From Candidatus Thorarchaeota archaeon (GTDB lineage: Archaea; Asgardarchaeota; Thorarchaeia; Thorarchaeales; Thorarchaeaceae), in assembly GCA_046482545.1 (NCBI GenBank), contig JAWOEX010000021.1:64001-128000 (forward strand): DNA of 64,000 nucleotides. Direction: 5' to 3'. This document shows, one piece after another, positions 1 through 12,485 of the stretch. The notes below the pieces were generated by a model. The model searched no databases and had not been told where the DNA came from. It saw only the letters and a program-made list of their open reading frames with translations. The translations under genes were made by a program, and so were the position numbers. Each line of letters begins with the position of its first letter. Position 1 is the first letter of the stretch.

Positions 1-315
1 CCCACGACGCGTTTCATCATTATCAATCAAATCATCATGAAGAAGCGAACCGTTGTGAAGAAACTCCACGGAACATGCTGCAAGATAGAGATGCTCCACT
101 TCGTTCCGTTCCTTAATCGCCTTGTAACCGGTAGAGACAAGAATGGGGCGCAGTCGTTTACCGCCGCGCATCATGTATTCTTTCACATGACCATAGTACT
201 TTCTGTGAACGTCACCGAGTCTACTGACCTCCTCGATTCTTGAATCCAAGTACTCTTCCAAGGCTTCATTTACCAATTCATATTCGGTATCCACAATCTC
301 TTGATAGCCTGTCAA
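1..315 (-). CDS. idsA: Polyprenyl diphosphate (GGPP) synthase, 5' part; runs off the window start
   Basis: Not in the ORF track. Manual minus-strand translation from TTG at 315 (GGAGGA upstream): MTGYQEIVDTEYELVNEALEEYL...MMRGGKRLRPILV...SVEFLHNGSLLHDDLIDNDETRRG, containing the GGKRLRP and first DDxxD/RRG motifs of trans-isoprenyl diphosphate synthases. Confidence 0.9.
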   Translation of the reverse strand, partial: MTGYQEIVDTEYELVNEALEEYLDSRIEEVSRLGDVHRKYYGHVKEYMMRGGKRLRPILVSTGYKAIKERNEVEHLYLAACSVEFLHNGSLLHDDLIDNDETRRG

Positions 316-507
316 GGTCGCTCCTCCGCACTTGATACTCTGGATTCAGATAATTCCTCCTTTTTAGCATTTCTCAATCTGTCGAAGTACATTACAACAT
401 TAAGCTTAGTCTATGAAAGGGCAATGGAGATGTCGAAGCGAATTCAGACGAGTCGAAAAGGCATCAAGATTAGGCTTATTTGCCTAGTTTTACCCATACA
501 TCGTGAT

Positions 508-1947
508 ATGAAAACAGTACCCTCTCGAATTCTTCTGGCTATGATTCTCACCATGATTGTGACAGCTGGTGTATCGACATTTCCAGTAAGAGCGGTAGGA
601 GAATACAAGCTTGTCCAAATCGATCCAAGTAATCATGTCCCAGACTATTATGCGGTTGAAATCCCCTGGTTTCAACAAGAAAACAGTATATCATGTGGGC
701 CAGCTTGCCTCAAAATGGTTTTCGCTAAGCATGATTGGACAATTATCGAAGAAGAGATTCAGCAAGCCGCTAACATGAAGCCATCTCATGGTGGGACTTT
801 GACGACTGATATGGTCAGAGCTGCACATTTCAGCAACAGGAGTACAGCCCTTGATAATGCAAGTCTTCGCGGTTACACATCCAAACCTTGTGGAAGTGAT
901 TCAGTGGGCTCACGACCAACCGACGAAAACAAGGTCGATATGCTCAAACAATTCTTGCTTCAGGAACAAAGCCCCATACTCTTGATGTGGTACACCGTAG
1001 CTCACAATTACGGTCATTACAGGATACTGCGAGCATACGATGATAGATCAGAAACTCTCTACTTTGCTGATCCTATGGGCTACAATGCCACCCTTGGAGT
1101 GAATTGGACCCTGCCCTATGATGAGTTCATCAACGACTGGTGGTCATATAGCGGCTATTGGTTGCAAGTCATTTCTGATTGGAATATCGAGATATCTGTA
1201 AATGAGTCGGTATCTGAGCCATCAAGTTATGCCGTGAATGCAACAATCAGTACAGGGATAGAACAGAATCTTAGAGACCCACAATCAATTCTTCGGGCCT
1301 GTTCAGCTAGACTAAACCTTCCAAACGGCTGGGAACTGAACTCGGGAACCAGTGAGACACCAATTGAATTCAACCAGCAAGGTGTCACGTCCGTTCGATG
1401 GGAAATAACTCAACAGGATAGAAGTGAGCAAGGCAATATCACGGTAACTGCTAGGGGCCGTATTGGCGGACAAACTGCATCCTATGACTCATACGAAGAC
1501 CTGATCTGCACATCAGAGGGCGTAGACATTTTTGCGCTTCAGAAACCATCCCTTGGGAAGATTAACATAGGGCATACAGATGAGGGCTTAGAAGTTCTAG
1601 CGAGCATAAGAAATCCAAATCTTGTCAGAAGCTGTAAGCTGCTTTGGAGAAATAATCCCACCAATTGGAAAACAGTACCTATGGAAGCAGTTGATTCAGA
1701 GTCGTATTCTGCTAGTATGACAATTCCTGAGCCGAGAATGGAGAAGAATGAATCGGTTCAAATCAGGTTCGTTCTTACTGATGAGAACAGTGAATTGACA
1801 CAGACAGCAGCATATGAGTACAGATTCTATGAGTCGCCTGTTACAGTCGTCCCTATGATAATAGGAGGTGTAGTAATAGTGACTGTTGTCGCAATAATCG
1901 TACTACTACATCAAATCGGACTTCTTAGACTGAATGCACAAGAGTAG
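508..1947 (+). CDS. Secreted, C-terminally membrane-anchored C39-like (papain-fold) cysteine peptidase
   Basis: Signal-peptide-like N-terminus from MKTVPSRILLAMIL; QQENSISCGPACLKMV (Q..C), YGHYRIL (His), YFADP (Asp); C-terminal hydrophobic helix. Start chosen at ATG 508 within ORF 301..1947. Confidence 0.75.
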   Translation: MKTVPSRILLAMILTMIVTAGVSTFPVRAVGEYKLVQIDPSNHVPDYYAVEIPWFQQENSISCGPACLKMVFAKHDWTIIEEEIQQAANMKPSHGGTLTTDMVRAAHFSNRSTALDNASLRGYTSKPCGSDSVGSRPTDENKVDMLKQFLLQEQSPILLMWYTVAHNYGHYRILRAYDDRSETLYFADPMGYNATLGVNWTLPYDEFINDWWSYSGYWLQVISDWNIEISVNESVSEPSSYAVNATISTGIEQNLRDPQSILRACSARLNLPNGWELNSGTSETPIEFNQQGVTSVRWEITQQDRSEQGNITVTARGRIGGQTASYDSYEDLICTSEGVDIFALQKPSLGKINIGHTDEGLEVLASIRNPNLVRSCKLLWRNNPTNWKTVPMEAVDSESYSASMTIPEPRMEKNESVQIRFVLTDENSELTQTAAYEYRFYESPVTVVPMIIGGVVIVTVVAIIVLLHQIGLLRLNAQE

Positions 1948-2000
1948 TAGTTCATGTAGAAGGATATTGGGCCATCAACACCGGGGCTGCTGCTTTGACC

Positions 2001-2915
2001 TTATACGTAGAGTCTTCCCCGTAAGACAGTTACAGCCTTACCGCTGACCTTGACTTGGTTAATCTTCTCTTCATTACCTCTGATTTCCACGTACACCTTC
2101 CCTGGACGGCCAACAAAGTCTCCTTGTTCAATTACTATGCTGGTAACTGGATTAGAAGAATCCATCATACCGTATTTTACCATGTATGACGCCATCCCAC
2201 CCGCTGCAGACCCGCTTACTGGATCCTCGGGAACACCTAGACCAGGCGCAAAATGACGGGCATGAGCATCAGAAGTTTCCTCCCTTGCATCACGGGTGAA
2301 AACCTGAATAGAAACGTAATCGGAATCCTTGCGTAGCTCCTGAAGAGCTTTCCAGTCAGGACGAATTCTCTCAAGAGATCTGTATGTATTGACAGGAATC
2401 ATCAGGTGAGGAGTCCCAGTCGAGACAGTTTGAATGGGCTTCGGGGACATGATATCTGCAAGAGTCAAGCCAAGGGCGTTTGCATATTCCTTCGGATCGT
2501 AGCTTGTCAAGAATTGTGGGGGTTGATGCGTAATCTGAATTTCATAAACCTGAGAGCGTTCGTTTTGAACCACCTCTACTTCAAAGACACCTGTATTGGT
2601 TTCAAACGTAAACATTGTGATGTGATTCGTGGCCTGAGCGATGCCTTCACTCAGCAATGCATTAAACGCAGCTACAGTTGCATGACCTGAGAAATTGATT
2701 TCACGGTCTGGTGTCATGTACCTGAACCGATAATCGGCTATATCAGAATCCGATACGTAGACTGTTTCCCTTACATTGAACTCCCGCGAGATTTTGTGCA
2801 TCATTTCCCTGCCAAGCTCATCAGCACCTAGAATGACTGTTGCAGGATTGCCTCCGAAGGGCACGTCGGTAAATGCATCAACATGCACAACATCGAATTC
2901 ATATTCGTGAGACAT
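2001..2915 (-). CDS. PhzF family (diaminopimelate epimerase-like) isomerase
   Basis: VDAFTDVPFGGNPA, EINFSGHAT, EDPVSGSAAG, IEQGDFVGRPG motifs. Confidence 0.9.
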   Translation of the reverse strand: MSHEYEFDVVHVDAFTDVPFGGNPATVILGADELGREMMHKISREFNVRETVYVSDSDIADYRFRYMTPDREINFSGHATVAAFNALLSEGIAQATNHITMFTFETNTGVFEVEVVQNERSQVYEIQITHQPPQFLTSYDPKEYANALGLTLADIMSPKPIQTVSTGTPHLMIPVNTYRSLERIRPDWKALQELRKDSDYVSIQVFTRDAREETSDAHARHFAPGLGVPEDPVSGSAAGGMASYMVKYGMMDSSNPVTSIVIEQGDFVGRPGKVYVEIRGNEEKINQVKVSGKAVTVLRGRLYV

Positions 2916-3380
2916 CTTATGGGCATCTCCTTGAAGCATTATTATTCAGTACGCTAATTAACGATTCCATTGGCCTCATAGTATGAATGAAGCGGAACAA
3001 GAACAATCATTCATCATTTCCAGCAGAGAGAGAATATGAAACCTAAACCATGATTGAATGAGATACAACAGCGGCATGCGAATATCAGCATCAAGCGGAT
3101 TTTCATTCGTCTCGTCAACCTGAAATAACTGACTACTGATGTCTAGTAAAATCCAAGGGTTGGATATGACCTGATTATGAAACAGCCGCTCAGCATCTCT
3201 TGTTCTTATGTATTCGAGTCCTACATCAGGCTAATTCTCATCATTTTGACTCGCATCGTATTCGTTGTGTCAGATAATACTGTTTGCTGAACTGTGGTGC
3301 TGAACAAGCGTCCGGATGCAAAAAGGGGAATCTAGGCAATCAGGCCGCACAACATTATTATTTGTAGACTATGTGCTAAG

Positions 3381-4200
3381 GGCCAAGTGGGTATCCGTCT
3401 CCACGGAGCACGGAGGTTGAGGGTGTTGAATTTGCCTTCACCTAACAGAGAACAGCAATCATCGGACACAGGGTATCAAGTCCTGGAGAGTCCGCGGCTG
3501 TTCACCATGTCCAGACGGACCTCCTCAGCTACGGTGACAAGGCTGAGGTGGGTGATCATGACCACGCCGTGGCAAGAACTGTGGAAGACCTCGCTGTCAC
3601 CGGGAGTGATGATCCGGGATGACGACAGGAGGAGGAAGCCAGGACCGCGGGAGGAATCCCATTCCGATGAACGTAGACAAAGCCCTGCTAACTCACGGGC
3701 CTACGGGTACCTTGGGGGCGGTGACGCTGGCAGGGGAAGGCCGGAACACAGAAGTTTCAAACAGTGTACGCAACTGTAAGAAACAGGTCATCTGGAGCTC
3801 CTCACTAGGAGGGAGCTGGCGGGACATAGATTGCGAAGAATGTTCACCTAGGGGCACTCGGCTGCTAACGCAGCTGAGTATGTTGAACTCTTCGATAGGA
3901 ACACCGTTGCCCGCCAGAGTTCCCAGAGAACCTGTAGTAGTCATATCAATTAGACTCATTGGCGACAACTCCACAGTTGCCGGTTTTCGAGGGCTCCAGG
4001 TTCACCTTACAATCTGTTTCTTGTAATTGAGTGAGAGCAACTTCGTAAGACTTCTGTACTCCACCTAGTCGATAATGAAGAGCTGACTGCGTCAAGTAAG
4101 CTCTCAATGCATTTGAAGGTCTGGATCAAGAAAAGTAGGAAGCAGTACTTAGATGCTCACCGGGAAGGCCAGAAAGAGAGTGCAGATGCAAAGAATCCAA
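3381..4200 (+). ncRNA. Putative large structured non-coding RNA of unknown family (core 3381-4024, probable 3' extension to ~4200)
   Basis: GC-richer than its flanks, no credible ORF. More than 10 helices readable by eye, including nested long-range pairs 3778-3789/4012-4023, 3816-3823/3910-3917, 3450-3456/3497-3503 and 3928-3934/3997-4003. Non-Watson-Crick positions are G-U on the + strand. TATA-like TTATTATT at ~3355. Confidence 0.7.
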
Positions 4201-4224
4201 TTGAATTTGTAGATAATAGAAACA

Positions 4225-4358
4225 AAGCAAAAAGGTGGCGACCACGCGATCGTGGTAGGAGGGGGGAGTTTCGTAATTGAGGGCATGTAACGAAAAACTA
4301 GACGCGTGATCGCCTCAATTCATTCATGCCATTCCAACTACGTTTTCTTTCCTATCAC
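4225..4358 (-). ncRNA. Putative small structured RNA, copy 1
   Basis: 52-nt core (4252-4303) identical to copy 2, enclosed by 12-bp stem 4237-4248/4303-4314 whose single C-A on + is G-U on -. U-rich 3' tail on the minus strand; TATA-like element at 4382-4389. Confidence 0.7.
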
Positions 4359-4634
4359 GAATTTTGTATACCGCCGACTTCTTATTAAACTTCCGATTGT
4401 AGACTAGTTTAGTAGACTTTAACTTCTATGGAACTCGGTTACTCTTTCGAAGTATCAAGTCTGAGTTTTTTGGTATTCGAAAATATTGGGAAAGAAGATG
4501 CATGAAAGTCTACAAAAGCGTAACCAAAGTCGAAGCCAGAAGAACTTCTAGAGGCATAGAAGGTGACGAGTGCGCGGATATAGTGGTAGGAGGGGGGAGT
4601 TTCGTAATTGAGGGCATGTAACGAAAAACTAGAC
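4252..4634. repeat. Perfect 52-bp direct repeat, two copies (4252-4303 and 4583-4634)
   Basis: GTGGTAGGAGGGGGGAGTTTCGTAATTGAGGGCATGTAACGAAAAACTAGAC occurs twice, 331 bp apart. Confidence 0.95.
4376..4395 (-). promoter_or_regulatory. Probable BRE/TATA promoter of small RNA copy 1
   Basis: Minus strand CGGAAG-TTTAATAAGAAGTC; the 13-mer TTAATAAGAAGTC is shared with copy 2 at an equivalent distance from the predicted 5' end. Confidence 0.6.
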
Positions 4635-4684
4635 CACGCACTCGCCTTGTTTATTCGTCATACCCTATGTTTTCCACCAATCAC
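4555..4684 (-). ncRNA. Putative small structured RNA, copy 2
   Basis: 52-nt core (4583-4634) enclosed by 13-bp stem 4565-4577/4634-4646 of different sequence from copy 1; two A-C/C-A on + are G-U on -. Same promoter motif at 4701-4713. Confidence 0.7.
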
Positions 4685-4700
4685 AGGGTTCTAGAAAATG

Positions 4701-4719
4701 GACTTCTTATTAACTTTTG
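4701..4719 (-). promoter_or_regulatory. Probable BRE/TATA promoter of small RNA copy 2
   Basis: Minus strand CAAAAG-TTAATAAGAAGTC. Confidence 0.6.
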
Positions 4720-4831
4720 TAAAGCAGACCATTTTAACTCGGGTAAGACAAAGATGAATCAGAATGGGTTTAATCTATCAAGATTGTTCTCAAATGATGG
4801 AATGGGGGGAACGCCCCTAGAGTATTCATTC

Positions 4832-6481
4832 TTACTCGTAGGGGTGTGAGATGCTTTCCTCTTCCATTTTGTCAGGGCGACTGCGTTTCCTCCACTCCTT
4901 TATTGGCATACTGAACTTGTCCTCAACCCTGTCACGATGGATAGTATTCATAGTGCAGAATGGGATGATTCTTCCGTCAGGAACACTGTAATTGATATCA
5001 CAGTGCTGCACACGCTCCAAGTCGAAATTGTACGGATCTTGGAAGTGCATCATACCAATCATGATAATGCGGTGCATAAACTCAGATAGTGAGTCATAAT
5101 CGCCTTTCTTCAGAAAAGCACCAAGCAAATCTTTCATCAATCCTTTTCGCTTGACATGGCGCAGTCCTGCGGCTAGTTTGGCTTTGGCCCGCTTGCCGGC
5201 AGCGAACTTCCCATCCGCATAGAGATTGCAGATGCCTTCCATAAGCTCAATGAATTTATCCACATCGATAAGATTGGTAATCGGCTCGTATCTCCCATCT
5301 TCATTGATGTAAATGAAGGTAGCCATACCACAGGCAAAGTGAGCACTAAGTTCCAATTGTGGAGTTCCTTTCATGAGCCCCATTGCTCGACCGATAGGCA
5401 TCATTCCCGGCACCGGATACCATTCTGATGCGGGAATTTTGCCATCAGTCTGTTCTTCGATTTTGTGAATCACATCGGGGATTGTTATTCGCATTTCTTG
5501 CCGCTTCTCATAATCAATCCGTCCTGTGATGCTGACAGGCTGGAAGTTCACACAACGAACAACGTCCTGGTTCTCCACAGCAAACTCGATAATATCGCCA
5601 ACCTGATCATCGTTTACACCTCGTACAACTGTAGGGACAAGGACAATCGAATCTAGGCCCACCTCTCTGCAGTTTTCGATGGCCTGCTTCTTCAACGGCA
5701 GCAGGTTCATCCCTCGTGCCGCTTCATAGGGCTCGGGTGTCACACCATCAAACTGCATGTAGATTGTCGACAGACCAGCTTCTTCGAGCTCTTTGGTATA
5801 TTCAAGTGATTTACCAAGGCGTATGGCATTGGTTGCAATCTCAGTATGCTTGAAACCAACGTCTTTGGCCCAGCGAAGATACTGTGGAAGATGCTTGCTG
5901 ACGGTAGGTTCGCCCCCTGCAAATTGAAGTGCTGGAGTTGGAACAGGCTTGTTGCTTCGAAGGTTCTTCATCATTTCTAGAACCTCTTCAGGAGTTGGCT
6001 CATACACTTCACCAGATTCTGCGGCGTGAGCGAAACAAATGGGGCATCGGAGGTTACACCTATTGGTGACATCAAGAAGAGCAAGTGCAGTATGCGATTT
6101 GTGCTCTGGGCACTGACCACAATCTTCTGGACAACCGTGTACAGTCTCTGTGCGAGGGTTATCAAGGCCTACTGTTTTGTACCACCACTTCTGGGCTTTC
6201 CTGAACATGTCGGCATCGCCCCAGTAGACATCTATAAACTCTCCATGTTTCTCACATTCTTTCTTGTACATAACCTTGCCATCTTCTTCGTAAAGAGTAG
6301 CATCAATGACATTAACCTCATCATCTGCTAACAGGCAATCAGGGCATATGGATTGGGTAGTATATGGTAGCTGACGTATCTCGTGTTTCTCAACGTGAAA
6401 TCGTGAGATATCATGCTCTTCATCTTCGAAAGGAAGCTCACTAGAAGGAACTGGTTCAATATCTGGTTCCATGAAAATCAA
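4832..6481 (-). CDS. tes: Radical SAM tetraether lipid synthase (Tes / GDGT-MAS, MJ0619 family)
   Basis: N-terminal SICPDC...CEKHG, GCPEDCGQCPEHKSHTAL, radical SAM CNLRCPIC, GGEPT, C-terminal FQDPYNFDLERVQHCDINY..DGRIIPFC. Confidence 0.85.
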   Translation of the reverse strand: MIFMEPDIEPVPSSELPFEDEEHDISRFHVEKHEIRQLPYTTQSICPDCLLADDEVNVIDATLYEEDGKVMYKKECEKHGEFIDVYWGDADMFRKAQKWWYKTVGLDNPRTETVHGCPEDCGQCPEHKSHTALALLDVTNRCNLRCPICFAHAAESGEVYEPTPEEVLEMMKNLRSNKPVPTPALQFAGGEPTVSKHLPQYLRWAKDVGFKHTEIATNAIRLGKSLEYTKELEEAGLSTIYMQFDGVTPEPYEAARGMNLLPLKKQAIENCREVGLDSIVLVPTVVRGVNDDQVGDIIEFAVENQDVVRCVNFQPVSITGRIDYEKRQEMRITIPDVIHKIEEQTDGKIPASEWYPVPGMMPIGRAMGLMKGTPQLELSAHFACGMATFIYINEDGRYEPITNLIDVDKFIELMEGICNLYADGKFAAGKRAKAKLAAGLRHVKRKGLMKDLLGAFLKKGDYDSLSEFMHRIIMIGMMHFQDPYNFDLERVQHCDINYSVPDGRIIPFCTMNTIHRDRVEDKFSMPIKEWRKRSRPDKMEEESISHPYE

Positions 6482-6598
6482 ATCCTTGCTTATCTTTTGC
6501 CACCACTGAACGGAGTGGTATTCTATTGGTAGACCTTCTAGAATGAATATAACCTTTATCCAACGAATTATAATCTTAATCGTCGGAGTCTTGCGGAG

Positions 6599-6952
6599 TT
6601 AAGTCTCCATAACGAGAACATATCCCTTGGTAAAGGCCCCTCTTGAGGCGTTCTTCTTTTTCCGGATCTTTTCAATAGCTGCTTTCTCAATTCCTCTAAG
6701 CTTCAGAAGAGTATCAATTGCCTCAATGATATCAGCGATTTCTTCGACCTCCCCGGACTCCGAAAGCTCTATAGCTTCCTCCACAATCTTGGCGCGAAGC
6801 AATTCATCCATTTCTTCACGTGATGCGATTCGAATCCTTGGTTCTTCACCACTCTGATGAATTAATTCCGGTATTTTATCCCGCACGAGTTTCTCTCGTG
6901 TCAAAATCAAATCACCATTTGTTTGTTTCAATTCACTAAAGCACAAGCGCAA
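6599..6952 (-). CDS. MazG-like / phosphoribosyl-ATP pyrophosphohydrolase-like NTP pyrophosphatase
   Basis: KLVRDKIPELI...KIVEEAIEL...EEIADIIE...KNASRGAF pattern; true start probably somewhat downstream of 6952. Confidence 0.8.
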   Translation of the reverse strand: MRLCFSELKQTNGDLILTREKLVRDKIPELIHQSGEEPRIRIASREEMDELLRAKIVEEAIELSESGEVEEIADIIEAIDTLLKLRGIEKAAIEKIRKKKNASRGAFTKGYVLVMET

Positions 6953-7604
6953 CTTCTAATTGATCGTCAGCAATACTTGTAAATTCATCAAATGCCGCTT
7001 CAATCTTATCAGAGATTTCTGATGACCATACCTCGCCGGCTCCACGAGATACATTGTCTGCCATCTTCTCAAAGGGAAGAAATTGGAGGTGTCTATCTGC
7101 ATCAACGGATAGTGTCCCTATCCATTGCCCTTCTTCAAGAATCTCATACATTGGTGAGCGATCCCGCAATTCTGTAGCAGGAATAGCAACCCAGAAGAAG
7201 GATAATCCGTTGAACTGCGCGGCTTTTCCCACTCCGATAACGTAGCTGTCCATCTCACCCTTGGCCATTTCTAAGTCATAGAGAATACCTATGCGACAAT
7301 TCAGGCATTGATTGAATTCTATACCATCCCCACTCGAATCCATGTATGCTATACCGTTCTTCTCAACGTTATTGTCGTTACAATGCGGACAGAGATTGAT
7401 GCCCCAACGAACCTCTTGATAGTCTTCAAGAGCACCGTTGAGGATTCTCTGTCTTGCATTACTAAAAGCAGATTGGACTGCTTCGATTCCTTTGTTCTCC
7501 ATTTTTTCTCGAATGGCAGACCAAACTTCAAGCAGATTCTGCCACCTAATTTGCAAGATAAGGTCTGCTAATTCGTCAAGCGATTTTTCAGATAGATTAG
7601 CCAA
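6936..7604 (-). CDS. Hypothetical protein with zinc-ribbon-like CxxC pair
   Basis: 222-aa ORF with CPHC...CLNC; overlaps the next gene in operon fashion. Confidence 0.6.
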   Translation of the reverse strand: MANLSEKSLDELADLILQIRWQNLLEVWSAIREKMENKGIEAVQSAFSNARQRILNGALEDYQEVRWGINLCPHCNDNNVEKNGIAYMDSSGDGIEFNQCLNCRIGILYDLEMAKGEMDSYVIGVGKAAQFNGLSFFWVAIPATELRDRSPMYEILEEGQWIGTLSVDADRHLQFLPFEKMADNVSRGAGEVWSSEISDKIEAAFDEFTSIADDQLEVALVL

Positions 7605-7944
7605 CTTTGATCACCTTGAAACTACGCAATCATTAACAACAGATGTAATGATGCGCAATTAAGAGTTCCCTAGATGACCCTCACGAGAGAGCTAAGAATG
7701 GGAAAATGTTCTCCAATAATCTCCACGAAGTAGACAAGTTTTCCTAGCCTAAGGTTTTTAACTGACACAGACTTCACAAAATTGCGAAAGATCACTAGGT
7801 GAGACAAGGATGGATAGCCAAATCAGATAGGCATACAAGTTTACCTGATTCATTCAGCAACAATGCTGTCTCGCCGATGCACAAGACAAAGACCCACCTT
7901 TGTGCTTTCTTATTCAGAGAATACTATTCAGAGAGTAGACTATA

Positions 7945-10900
7945 ATGACCGAGTTGCCAAAACGATACTCCCCAGTCGAAGTCGAGCATGAGATACTTAA
8001 GTTCTGGAAGGAAAATGATATCTATCAGAAGACAGTAGATTACAGGAAATCTGGACCTCGCTGGAATTTCTTGGAAGGCCCACCCACTACAAACGGCTTC
8101 ATGCATGTAGGTCACGCTAGGGGACGCGCGATGAAAGACGCGCAGTTACGCTACATGACCATGAAAGGATACAATGTGTGGAGACGAGGGGGTTGGGACA
8201 TGCAAGGACTCCCTGTTGAACTCGAAGTAGAAAAGAACGAAGGCATTGCAGAAAAGGGAGAAATAGAATCTGCGATGGGTCTTGACCAGTTTGTTCAGAA
8301 ATGCAAAGACCTTGTAGATTACTATCTTGAGGGATGGGTGGAGGATTCCAGACGGTTAGGTCTTTGGCTCGATTACGAGAAAGCCTACAAGACGAGACGG
8401 GATGATTACATAGAGCATGTGTGGCATTTCCTGAAGCTTGCTAGTGAAGAGGGATTGCTGGGAAGAGGCTACAGAGTCAATCCGATATGCCCAAGATGTG
8501 TGACTGCGCTTTCCGGTCACGAGGTATCACAAGGCTATCAGACAAAAACAGACCCTTCGATATATGTCAAATTCAAAAGAAAGGGGACAGAAAACGAGTA
8601 CCTTGTGATATGGACAACTACTCCCTTTACCATCATATCAAACGAGATGGTATCTGTCCACCCAGAGTATGATTATGTAAAAGTGAAAGTAGATGACGAG
8701 TACTGGTGGCTCGTTGAAGATTTAATGGATACAGTTCTCGAAAAGGCAGGCATCAAAGATTTCGAAATAGTTGAGAAAATAGGGGGTGATGAAATGCTCG
8801 GGTGGAAATACGAGCATCCATTCGAAGACGAAGTCGAGTGGCACCAAAACCACAACGAGCAATACATGCATGCGGTTGTGACAGGCAGGCATGTTACCGT
8901 TGATGAAGGTACAGGGCTGGTTCATACTGCGCCTGGTTTTGGACCCGATGACTTCGACATAGGACAGGAATTTGGTGTACCTGTTTTTTGTCCAGTTACC
9001 AAACAGGGACGGTTTACTGACGAAGTTCCCATGTTCGAAGGGAAATACGTTTTCGATACAAATGATGTCGTTCCAGAGCAGCTGGATGAAAAAGGCCTAC
9101 TGCTTCATCAAGAGACCGTAGACCATGAATATCCTCATTGCTGGCGATGTGATACCCCCCTAATCTATCTAGCAGATAATACCCAGTGGTTCCTCAAGAT
9201 GAGGGGAGTACGAGAAAGACTTGTTGAAAAGAACCAAGAAATCGAGTGGACACCTGGATGGGCAGGCTCAGGACGTTTTGGCGATTGGGTGGCAAACGCT
9301 GATGACTGGTGCATATCGAGATCTAGAGTGTGGGGATCACCACTGCCAGTATGGGTTTGTGATGAATGTCAGGAAGAGTCGGTTATAGGTTCACGGAAAG
9401 AGTTGAGAGAAAAAGCAGTCGAATTTCCTGAGGAATTCGAAATGCATAGACCTTGGGTTGACAAAGTGTTGCTCGAATGTCCTGAGTGTGGAGGTGTCAT
9501 GCACCGAGAAAGCTTTGTCACCGACTGTTGGCTTGATTCAGGCATGGCTCATTCTGCTAGCGTGGATTATCTCAGTGATGAAACACTATTCCCTGAACTA
9601 TTCCCCTATGATTTTATCACCGAAGCTGTCGATCAATCAAGGGGCTGGTTCTACAGCCTCCTCTATACTGGAGTAGTAATGCATGGAGAAGCTCCATTCC
9701 AAGCTTGCGTAAGTCAGGGACATGTTCTCGATGAACACGGAGGAAAGATGAGCAAGTCAAAAGGAAATGTCGTATGGGCTGAAGATGCCTTCGAGAATGT
9801 TGGTGCAGATCCATTTAGGATTTTCATGCTAAGCAGGTCAGCACCTTGGACAAGAGTCAATTACAGCACGAAGGAAGTCAATCACGTAACAAAGCGACTT
9901 GATATTTTCTGGAATGTTTTCCTCTTTGCGGAGACGTACATGGACCTCGATGAGTTTGTATACAATGAGGAGCGTATGCTTTCTGGTCTTTCAAATGCCA
10001 AGCTGGAGGAGAAATGGCTTGTATCACGAGTTCAAAGTGTCCTTAGTGAGTTCCATGGATATATGAACGAATATCTCTATCATCATGCCTCTCGGGTGCT
10101 CCTTGATTTCATAACAGACGATTTGAGCAGGGTGTATTTACCACTAGTGAAGAGAAGAGTCTGGTTAGAAAGTGATAACCCTGAGAAGCTGATGACGTAC
10201 GATGTTCTGTTTTACACACTACAAACAATGCTGCATTGCATCAATATATTCACTCCCTATCTAGCCGAGAAACTGCATCAAGATTTCCTGATGAGGTTCT
10301 CTAAGAATCAGCCAGAGTCAATTAACATGACAGATATGCCAGAGGTTGATGAGTCCTATCTGGATCAAGAACTTGAAGCCACCTTTGATGTTTTAGAGGA
10401 GCTCCGTTCCGCGGCCAGTCACGCACGCAACAAGAGCGGAATAAAACTCAGGCACCCTGTGAAGAAGGTGATGTTTGTTCCTGCATCCGAAGATGCAGCG
10501 GAAAGAGCTAGAAATCTTCATGAGATACTCTTGGAGGATTTGAACACAAGAGAATTCGAAGTCATTGACCCAGAACAGGCATCCCAATTTGTTGAGCTAG
10601 AAGCAGACCCCAACTATGAGAGCCTTGGCCCCAAGTTCAAAGGAAAGACAGACGCAGTGGTAGCCGCTCTAACAGAAGCAGATGCTGCCAATCTGAAGAA
10701 GGAATTCGACAAGGGAACAGCCAGCCTAGAAGTAGATGGCGAGAAAGTTAAACTTGAATCTACTGATGTGACCTTCCGTGAGGAACTGGTTGGTAAGCTA
10801 AGCAGTTCAGATAGCAGAGTTGGAACAGTCTACGTGGATAACACACGAACGAAAGAACTTGAAGCTGAAGGTCTGGTCCGTGATGTGACTAGAAGAGTAC

Positions 10901-11142
10901 AGGTTATGAGAAAGGAAATGGATCTAGATGTGGAAGAGATGCTCAATCTTGCTCTCAAGTTTTCTGATGAAGAATCCATCGAGCTAACGAAGATATTCGC
11001 AGACTACCTAGCTACGGAGACTCGTGCCGAATCCATGGATCTCCTTGGACCCGATGATGAAACGGACTGGGACATCTTTGAGTATGTCAAGGAATGGGAC
11101 ATAGACGATCTTACGCTGAAGGTAGGTATGACTTCGAAGTAA
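7945..11142 (+). CDS. ileS: Isoleucyl-tRNA synthetase (archaeal/eukaryotic type)
   Basis: EGPPTTNG-HVGH, WTTTPF, GTGLVH, DWCISRSRVWG, DQSRGWF, KMSKS. Confidence 0.97.
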   Translation: MTELPKRYSPVEVEHEILKFWKENDIYQKTVDYRKSGPRWNFLEGPPTTNGFMHVGHARGRAMKDAQLRYMTMKGYNVWRRGGWDMQGLPVELEVEKNEGIAEKGEIESAMGLDQFVQKCKDLVDYYLEGWVEDSRRLGLWLDYEKAYKTRRDDYIEHVWHFLKLASEEGLLGRGYRVNPICPRCVTALSGHEVSQGYQTKTDPSIYVKFKRKGTENEYLVIWTTTPFTIISNEMVSVHPEYDYVKVKVDDEYWWLVEDLMDTVLEKAGIKDFEIVEKIGGDEMLGWKYEHPFEDEVEWHQNHNEQYMHAVVTGRHVTVDEGTGLVHTAPGFGPDDFDIGQEFGVPVFCPVTKQGRFTDEVPMFEGKYVFDTNDVVPEQLDEKGLLLHQETVDHEYPHCWRCDTPLIYLADNTQWFLKMRGVRERLVEKNQEIEWTPGWAGSGRFGDWVANADDWCISRSRVWGSPLPVWVCDECQEESVIGSRKELREKAVEFPEEFEMHRPWVDKVLLECPECGGVMHRESFVTDCWLDSGMAHSASVDYLSDETLFPELFPYDFITEAVDQSRGWFYSLLYTGVVMHGEAPFQACVSQGHVLDEHGGKMSKSKGNVVWAEDAFENVGADPFRIFMLSRSAPWTRVNYSTKEVNHVTKRLDIFWNVFLFAETYMDLDEFVYNEERMLSGLSNAKLEEKWLVSRVQSVLSEFHGYMNEYLYHHASRVLLDFITDDLSRVYLPLVKRRVWLESDNPEKLMTYDVLFYTLQTMLHCINIFTPYLAEKLHQDFLMRFSKNQPESINMTDMPEVDESYLDQELEATFDVLEELRSAASHARNKSGIKLRHPVKKVMFVPASEDAAERARNLHEILLEDLNTREFEVIDPEQASQFVELEADPNYESLGPKFKGKTDAVVAALTEADAANLKKEFDKGTASLEVDGEKVKLESTDVTFREELVGKLSSSDSRVGTVYVDNTRTKELEAEGLVRDVTRRVQVMRKEMDLDVEEMLNLALKFSDEESIELTKIFADYLATETRAESMDLLGPDDETDWDIFEYVKEWDIDDLTLKVGMTSK

Positions 11143-11162
11143 TATCGAATCGACAAAGCATA

Positions 11163-12485
11163 CTATGAGAGAACATCAATGAGCTCATAGAAGAACTCGG
11201 CATTCTCTTCAATGGATGGCAATAACACCCATTCATTTGCTCCATGTAGGTTATCACCTATCGGACCAAAATCGAACACTTGGGTATTCTTTTCTGCAAA
11301 ATAACGCGAATCAGAAGCGCCTCCACCTTCAATCAAGCGTATCCTAATTCCGACACGATCAAGAGCTTTTCGAGCTGCTTTGATTAGTTGCGAGTTTGGA
11401 TCAGAATCAACATAGCCTTGGCCAGCACCAACCGTGAGAGATGCCACTTCAGCTTTTCCCCTCAGGGCTTCTTGGAATGCATGCTTCACACTCTTTGAGT
11501 CGTTAGTCATAGCCCGCACATCCAAGTAGAGATCCCATTCATCATCCTTCAATTCAAGCAGATTTGGTGAAACAACCTTCCCCATATCGGAATGTTCAGT
11601 TGAAAAGGCAGCTTGAGCCACCGGCAATGCCGCTCGGAGCAAGTCAGTGAGCCCCTGATCGTATTCAACAGTCTCGCCCGATTCATTAGCGTGTACTATC
11701 TTCAGCTCTATCCAGTCCGGAATCACATTTGATTTGACAAACGCACCATCTATCTCAACTACTCCTGCGAATGGGTTCAAATCGAGATATTTTGACGCAG
11801 CGAGCAAAGCATGTCTATCCACGCCTGGTCGCTGGTAAGCTGAATGTCGGGTGTCGCTGCCGAAGAGGTCAGTCCGGAATCGCTTTGTCTCAATCTCGCC
11901 TCGTATCTCAGAGGTCTCGCTCTGTACCTTGACGTGAGTCGGCAAAGCATTGCGTCTTCGGTGAATGATTACCTGCCCAATACCATCTGCGACCACAACA
12001 TAATCCGGCAGGAGATCATGTGCTTCCAGATACTTTCTGAGATTGCCAGCGCCATGAGCGCCACCAATTTCCTCATCGCCAGTAGCCGCCAGCATAATGG
12101 TCATAGACGGATTGACATTTTTTAGCTTCTCTGCCAGAAGAAGCATTGATACGATATTGCCCTTGTCATCGCACGTTCCGCGTCCATACGCACGATTGTC
12201 CTTAAGTACAAGCTCGAAAGGGTCGGTTTTCCAACCTTCTCCTGCCGGAACGGTGTCAAAGTGAGCTAGAAAAAGTAGCTTCGTGTCCCCATCACCTTTT
12301 CGTCCAAAGGCACTCCAGTATCCTTCCGATTCTAGAATCTCCGTTTCAAATCCAAATTCTTGGATTGTGTTGGTTATGTAGTTGGGACATGCGGATGTGG
12401 CTTTCTTTCCCTTGTCTCTGTCAGAAACTGTGTTAATTTCAACAAGTGTCTTCAGCTCGGATAATGAATCGAGAACCATAAGCAA
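11163..12485 (-). CDS. M20/ArgE-DapE family metallopeptidase/deacylase
   Basis: AHFDTVP, GRGTCDDKG, DEEIGG, GGASDSR, HGANE. Confidence 0.9.
   Translation of the reverse strand: MLMVLDSLSELKTLVEINTVSDRDKGKKATSACPNYITNTIQEFGFETEILESEGYWSAFGRKGDGDTKLLFLAHFDTVPAGEGWKTDPFELVLKDNRAYGRGTCDDKGNIVSMLLLAEKLKNVNPSMTIMLAATGDEEIGGAHGAGNLRKYLEAHDLLPDYVVVADGIGQVIIHRRRNALPTHVKVQSETSEIRGEIETKRFRTDLFGSDTRHSAYQRPGVDRHALLAASKYLDLNPFAGVVEIDGAFVKSNVIPDWIELKIVHANESGETVEYDQGLTDLLRAALPVAQAAFSTEHSDMGKVVSPNLLELKDDEWDLYLDVRAMTNDSKSVKHAFQEALRGKAEVASLTVGAGQGYVDSDPNSQLIKAARKALDRVGIRIRLIEGGGASDSRYFAEKNTQVFDFGPIGDNLHGANEWVLLPSIEENAEFFYELIDVLS

Follow-up and report, generated by a model that had tools for sequence, protein, structure and literature searches.

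Two small RNA genes lie in tandem on the minus strand of the analysed window, a 64,000-nt stretch of a Candidatus Thorarchaeota contig. Copy 1 (4358-4233) and copy 2 (4684-4561) are paralogues of an old, vertically inherited and well-expressed small RNA of the Thorarchaeia, and the pairing of a 5' leader with the core, real but optional within the family, reaches its extreme here. The range of the family, covariation of its outer stem, RNA contigs that contain the leader, enriched complementarity between leader and core, and the geometry of introns in homologues were established in the present analysis. Tentatively, and as the first choice among several readings, the RNA is interpreted as an anti-Shine-Dalgarno (anti-SD) regulator with an optional antagonist, the leader, in cis.

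The two copies have a 55-nt repeat in common (98% identity), 331 nt apart (Table 1). A TATA-like box precedes the first leader G by about 30 nt in each of them; in leaderless homologues, the same motif was found 26-30 nt before a start that coincides with the outer stem (P1). The 3' end of the copy 1 RNA was placed at approximately 4233, past the coordinate (4249) given in the earlier, sequence-only reading of this DNA.

Table 1. Positions of the two small RNA genes and of their upstream neighbour in the window.
Feature	Position	Strand	Remarks
Copy 2 promoter	4706..4719	-	BRE-like purine run; TATA-like TTAATAAG (4713-4706), 29 nt before predicted start
Copy 2 leader, 38 nt	4647..4684	-	Predicted to pair with box A region or to form a weak self-fold; near-bistable
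Copy 2 P1 5' arm	4634..4646	-	Pairs with 4577-4565
Copy 2 box A	4609..4628	-	U-run, GUUAC, AUGCCCUCA; near-invariant; BHB-type introns at box A in homologues
Copy 2 box B	4584..4601	-	C-rich, anti-Shine-Dalgarno-like
Copy 2 P1 3' arm (4577-4565) and ACCU tail (4564-4561)	4561..4577	-	
Copy 2 micro-ORF MTNKQGECVV*	4629..4661	-	Present, not conserved
Copy 1 promoter	4381..4395	-	BRE-like run and TATA TTTAATAAG (4389-4381); identical in G002 orthologue
Copy 1 leader, 44 nt	4315..4358	-	Predicted to cover boxes A and B in an interrupted rod (about 32 bp)
Copy 1 P1 5' arm	4303..4314	-	Pairs with 4248-4237
Copy 1 box A	4278..4297	-	
Copy 1 box B	4253..4270	-	C-rich, anti-Shine-Dalgarno-like
Copy 1 P1 3' arm (4248-4237), ACCU tail (4236-4233) and U-tract	4229..4248	-	Likely terminator
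Copy 1 micro-ORF MNELRRSRV*	4298..4327	-	Present, not conserved
Tetraether lipid synthase Tes, full-length	4832..6481	-	NF045702, 650 bits; upstream neighbour of RNA pair

The plan of the RNA was constant in 145 distinct copies: P1, a short linker, box A, a 1-11-nt spacer, box B, the 3' arm of P1 and an ACC tail, which reads ACC(U/C) or, in some copies, AAC. P1 varies in length from 12 to 17 bp. Ten of its 14 pairs change on both sides while 97% of cells remain paired, and its covariation exceeded that of all 500 shuffles (0/500) and of every slid control. No covariation was found for the inner hairpin, whose 3' arm is absent in subtype III, indicating that the boxes are conserved as sequence and not as structure. 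About 38 core letters are near-invariant across the whole class, with little conserved pairing among them, and fully invariant letters are limited to two anti-purine motifs, U.CCCUCA and CCCCUCCUA; the length of the C-run varies from 4 to 9. Box B is identical to the conserved 16S anti-SD tail CACCUCCUA in 8 of 9 letters. Linkers CUAGU and CGAUU(N)CCC, which flank the core in all subtype I copies, resemble the ends of tRNA D- and T-loops, a hint that the frame could be tRNA-derived.

A core sequence model detected the family in 86 of 87 Thorarchaeia genomes, at 1-13 copies per genome; the sole genome without a match was 52% complete. An absence from genome G001 was only apparent, reflecting a contig break and low sensitivity. 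Outside the class, model R1 found no copy in 122 other Asgard genomes, model R2 gave just structureless matches at chance level in 39 non-Thorarchaeia Asgard genomes, and pattern matches in non-archaeal and viral sequences and contigs were no more frequent than chance. Covariance models of Rfam 15 produced no match at E<=1 in window positions 1-12000 and none at E<=10 over the small RNA in five homologue loci. As judged from these searches, the RNA belongs to no catalogued family.

Three ancestral loci recur, with subtype I between tes and a PhzF-family gene and subtypes II and III elsewhere. The neighbours are unrelated housekeeping genes, and no dedicated protein gene adjoins the RNA. Upstream of subtype I, tes is retained in most genomes as a conserved position marker; beyond this position, no functional link between tes and the small RNA was found. 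The genome of the window encodes, in addition to the two subtype I copies, one subtype III copy on contig C24 (L003, G000:C24:24080-24195, minus strand), which is leaderless.

Several further observations concern individual loci. In the window, about 1.2 kb (2940-4200) without a convincing gene separates the RNA pair from the PhzF gene, unlike in many relatives, where PhzF follows close behind the small RNA. Genome G024 (13 matches) contains degenerate copies (L075, L078, L079, L080, and L084) in which box A is altered, box B shows an AACCC change and P1 is missing; they look like the recent spread of a truncated form. Four subtype I copies (L044, L063, L102, and L230) have no TATA box, and their P1 begins soon after a same-strand upstream ORF; these copies may be cut out of the 3' end of an mRNA. 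A perfect subtype I copy (L132) belongs to a record whose title names Hermodarchaeota, perhaps through a fault of naming or binning.

Metatranscriptome contigs from salt-lake studies matched both genes with at least 99% identity, at 4251-4352 (run X4), 4262-4348 (X3), and 4571-4677, with one contig at 4585-4677 in run X6; they stem from a related population and reveal neither the strand nor the actual ends of the RNA. Summed contig depth was 25-145 over the two RNA genes, 0 in the spacer, and 0-18 in the flanks; part of the depth over the core stems from homologues, and contig depth cannot rank parts of one gene. The contigs run from the core through the leader to 6-7 nt from the predicted starts, so that the leader belongs to the transcript and the start does not lie downstream of it. 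TATA box, U-tract, and confinement of the (strand-less) RNA contigs to the genes characterize each copy as a stand-alone expressed gene. Low-depth RNA contigs covered window positions 3900-4270. In runs X4 and X6, which belong to two studies, a homologous RNA fragment stopped at the last P1 base before the adapter (window 4249), and copy 2 fragments ended 7 nt earlier; the end at 4249 is a weak hint of a processed 3' end.

A near-invariant single-stranded sequence closed by a covarying stem would also be expected of a ligand-binding or catalytic core, either an orphan aptamer or a ribozyme-like RNA, for which the leader would serve as expression platform or substrate strand. Such an identity is improbable, given stand-alone genes with their own promoter and terminator among unrelated neighbours, the scarcity of conserved pairing in the core, and the lack of Rfam similarity.

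From the letters of the window, each RNA had been proposed to possess a leader complementary to its own core, which would mask the core as part of a two-state switch or pseudoknot. The coordinates, sequences, pairings, and both micro-ORFs of that proposal were reproduced on the minus strand. In copy 1, the minimum-energy fold (-42.7 kcal/mol, z -3.75; z -5.4 when the 3' arm was omitted) places the leader, from G4358 onward, in colinear pairing with the entire core. The copy 2 leader (from G4684) had been assigned to the same core segment, which was correct for the 5' half of the core: its pairing covers box A and 6 nt beyond, and the CCUACCAC segment is left unpaired by the leader. Relative to 300 dinucleotide shuffles of each leader, the energy of the leader-core duplex corresponded to z -5.0 (p 0.003) for copy 1 and z -2.6 (p 0.023) for copy 2. 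In both copies, as proposed, the leader-core fold excludes the inner hairpin and crosses P1.

Complementarity between leader and core was retained in homologues, where it had been suggested as a test: all 28 dissimilar leaders showed z<0, with a mean of -1.84 as compared to -0.02 for downstream flanks. An independent metagenome copy showed the same design. Compared with its orthologue in the same genus, copy 1 is identical at 28 of 36 positions of the leader, versus 8 of 22 in the spacer between TATA box and start, and the changes in the leader sit in unpaired positions or preserve pairing.

The leader is restricted to subtype I. Subtypes II and III have none, and about 30 of the 79 copies examined, including the third copy in the genome, are leaderless. 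When 38 copies with a leader were folded in nested models, P1 dominated in 33, the leader folded on itself in 17, and the leader-masked rod prevailed in 3. GNRA loops were found on only 4-5 of 20 leader hairpins. Nested folding favoured the masked rod of copy 1 by 14 kcal/mol, and this copy is predicted to be locked in it. For copy 2, the P1 fold was favoured by about 3 kcal/mol (-33.3 versus -30.4 kcal/mol), which makes it near-bistable. Two exclusive folds of similar energy, as expected of a two-state switch, are thus predicted for copy 2; those of copy 1 lie 14 kcal/mol apart, and P1 prevails among homologues, in which the potential for leader-core pairing is enriched. Masking of the core rests on real, enriched pairing but does not extend across the family, with two leaderless subtypes and P1 winning in most leadered copies. 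A full pseudoknot is sterically implausible in the modelled copy 1, because about 1 nt joins the base of the ~32-bp rod to the P1 3' arm, whose partner lies in the far loop. In copy 2 and in short-leader homologues, a pseudoknot would be feasible, as box B remains available there to bridge the helix.

The variable occurrence of the leader raises the possibility that its pairing is a by-product, or a mere aid to folding or stability, and that the mature RNA is the P1 domain. This explanation would accommodate the leaderless copies, the dominance of P1, and the self-folding leaders. It would also accommodate leader pairing in a register that differs between lineages, and the lack of an excess of G-U over A-C in leader-core alignments (68 observed, 87 in shuffles). 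Moreover, many leaders look like incomplete copies of the 5' arm of P1, which is rich in G, or form hairpins of their own, and pairing between G-rich clusters and a C-rich core is to be expected anyway. The explanation is nevertheless unlikely, as the enrichment persists under composition-preserving shuffles, orthologues keep paired leader positions while flanks diverge, and about 32 bp in copy 1 extend over the entire core.

The AUG of each leader pairs with the core CAU and opens the micro-ORF that had been read from the sequence (Table 1). A ribosome translating from this AUG to the UAG had been suggested to displace the leader and thereby open the core. Frame conservation, the test attached to that suggestion, failed: the AUG-UAG frame occurs in just 11 of 42 leaders, AUG is absent in 15 of 42, and both same-genus (G002) orthologues have lost the frame. 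The orthologue of copy 2 encodes MKNN* in place of MTNKQGECVV*, and in that of copy 1 the micro-ORF reads through in another frame. The peptides are unrelated among homologues, no consensus SD precedes either leader AUG, and the UAG falls within the linker, a variable element. Pairing with the invariant CAU explains the AUG. Although the frame holds in both window copies and, among the 21 AUG frames of homologues that extend into the core, in 11 (1/3 expected; p ~0.06 by hand, for sequences that are not independent), a translation-coupled switch is very improbable and appears largely refuted by the orthologues. A leader-peptide (uORF) switch was rejected on the same count, as start, frame, and stop are conserved together in just 11 of 42 leaders.

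Seven homologous copies carry a 30-31-nt insertion within box A or box B, at four positions; two of these seven insertions share one genome. Intron-bearing copies include those on G002 C166, G025 C5 and C130, and G017 C129. Removal of the insertion at bulge-helix-bulge (BHB) cut positions restored the consensus core letter for letter in all seven cases. The central helix has 4 of 4 pairs in six insertions, and four of the seven fell into the strict canonical class that was used for Asgard tRNAs, which carry BHB introns (bioRxiv 10.64898/2026.10.13.758758), as compared to about 2% each in a shuffled-intron null. Two genes for EndA catalytic domains were identified in the window's genome. This geometry points to splicing by tRNA endonuclease, which, if it takes place in vivo, would imply a stable RNA whose exact core matters.

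The 4-bp central helix, 3-nt bulges, intron hairpin, and exact exon restoration are features of BHB introns in archaeal RNAs in general. Such introns also occur in archaeal rRNAs and in the cbf5 mRNA. The host described here is, unlike these, neither a tRNA, an rRNA nor an mRNA, and the literature searched contained no report of BHB introns in a comparable small non-coding RNA. The copy 2 orthologue in G002 (L009, G002:C166:1392-1537) contains two insertions, one a canonical BHB and the other a hairpin without a clear central helix. This second insertion, a 17-19-nt hairpin inserted between the boxes of L003, and the insertion in L090 did not fit BHB geometry. A metagenome scan for further intron-bearing copies returned one match, which was intron-free. 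Elsewhere in the genome, a 23S rRNA match of 3304 nt (G000:C2:80561-83864) shows an apparent insertion near position 2560-2640, and 16S genes of several relatives align with gaps (noted beside G000:C2:1-1490), suggesting rRNA introns or expansion segments.

The anti-SD reading was ranked first because of the likeness of box B to the 16S tail, matches in SD windows, and analogy with Yfr1/Yfr2 (PMC6778093) and sRNA162 (PMC3510493). Six-mers complementary to box B were present in the SD window of 158 of 2006 genes and in the control window of 37, comparable to the 164 and 21 genes counted for the 16S tail itself. Complements of box A were not enriched in the SD window (22 versus 25), and no start region exceeded shuffled controls as a specific mRNA target. 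The RNA contains a conserved C-rich motif complementary to SD sequences of its host, the feature by which C-rich anti-SD sRNAs are recognized.

In the proposed mechanism, the working unit would be a domain of 80-100 nt whose stem P1 presents two pyrimidine-rich, near-invariant boxes, box B as a copy of the 16S anti-SD tail and box A as an anti-GAGGG-AUG. These boxes would most likely pair in trans with purine-rich ribosome-binding sites and, in the manner of bacterial C-rich sRNAs, lower the translation of many mRNAs. Subtype I copies would have an antagonist built in, namely a target-like leader of 20-60 nt in front that could pair with the boxes in cis and set the amount of exposed core, with nearly all of it masked in copy 1 and about 70% exposed in copy 2. 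Exposure in vivo would then require refolding, a competing RNA or protein, or removal of the leader; translation of the micro-ORF would not be the trigger.

Against the anti-SD reading, about 38 near-invariant letters and introns excised to the letter amount to a stronger constraint than would be needed for a short seed, and are explained equally well by a core that is catalytic or bound by protein. It is further weakened by the lack of an mRNA above shuffles, the unenriched box A, the masked fold dominating in only 3 of 38 leadered copies, and the missing G-U excess. Placed close behind it, though somewhat unlikely in itself, is a housekeeping RNP or decoy whose boxes bind protein or the translation machinery, a site that the leader would still cover in some copies. 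Binding partners could be, for example, factors reading the 3' end of 16S rRNA, because a helix with CACCU after it is reminiscent of helix 45 and the tail. Class-wide presence, three ancestral loci, extreme invariance, precise BHB-type introns like those of stable RNAs, a conserved ACC tail, and the absence of a target in our searches are consistent with such a role; arguments against it are that an adjoining dedicated protein gene is lacking, that the genome contains neither Ro60/TROVE nor reverse transcriptase, and that the C-run varies from 4 to 9. Incidental pairing, an aptamer or ribozyme, and the translation-coupled switch follow in this order.

Other identities were rejected. As to a function in guiding or chaperoning rRNA, the strongest match in 16S (15 bp, of which 3 G-U) falls within a helix whose sequence, in contrast to the core, varies among 24 Thorarchaeia 16S genes, and the strongest in 23S within the apparent insertion. 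An H/ACA or C/D guide is contradicted by the ACC tail, the absence of the respective boxes, and best rRNA matches in variable segments. Complement runs with tRNAs, 5S, RNase P, and SRP RNA did not exceed chance; the latter three are present elsewhere in the genome, so the small RNA is not derived from them. The candidate of a retron/DRT or reverse-transcriptase template RNA failed on the absence of RVT_1 from the genome and the occurrence of box B only at the three RNA genes, and that of a tRNA-like RNA with a tmRNA-type end on the absence of a T-stem, a tail of ACC(U/C) or AAC, and a P1 of 12-17 bp. Y RNAs and vault RNAs are about 90 nt long, with paired 5' and 3' ends and a large pyrimidine-rich loop, features that the Thorarchaeia RNA shares. 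Unlike a Y RNA, it has no Ro-binding bulged helix, and Ro60/TROVE is absent from the genome (98.9% complete; the positive control was detected in 2 genomes).

RsaE/RoxS, 6C, and cuckoo are bacterial C-rich anti-SD sRNAs. They share with the present RNA an exposed C-rich segment complementary to SD sequences and stand-alone, multi-copy genes, but not homology or the far longer invariant core, and the likeness here derives from sequence, with no target found. In cyanobacteria, the sRNA Yfr1/Yfr10 is blocked by an antagonist, Yfr2, with a complementary purine-rich 5' motif (PMC6778093). Near-universality in one clade, an ultraconserved single-stranded C/U-rich motif, and several paralogues are common to both systems. 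In contrast to Yfr1/Yfr2, the complement resides here in cis on the same RNA, under an archaeal TATA promoter and with introns, and, unlike in Yfr1/Yfr10, two boxes lie in one 50-nt loop closed by a terminal stem, with no Rfam match. In Methanosarcina mazei, a single-stranded region of sRNA162 masks a ribosome-binding site (PMC3510493), the action proposed here for another archaeal sRNA; unlike the Thorarchaeia RNA, sRNA162 has a single specific target, a narrow range, no terminal-stem loop, and no self-masking leader. On present evidence, the RNA would work like C-rich anti-SD sRNAs, from which its proposed cis antagonist and BHB-type introns set it apart.

A more far-reaching interpretation, which we regard as distinctly unlikely, describes an essential RNA present throughout this Asgard class, which would imitate the 3' end of 16S rRNA, mature in a tRNA-like manner (EndA introns, leader removed or refolded), and carry a cis antisense inhibitor, with tandem paralogues at different off/on ratios. 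If true, this would represent a self-inhibited precursor RNA without described counterpart in archaea.

Regulatory small RNAs of Asgard archaea were not encountered in the literature searched here. Presence in practically every Thorarchaeia genome, near-invariance, and the metatranscriptome signal together indicate that the RNA probably has a basic role. The exactness of the BHB-type insertions places the exact core sequence under selection, and through them a small non-coding RNA would be added to the substrates spliced by tRNA endonuclease. The core provides a class-specific marker for RNA surveys, and the leader a natural, testable case of an sRNA that bears its own antagonist.
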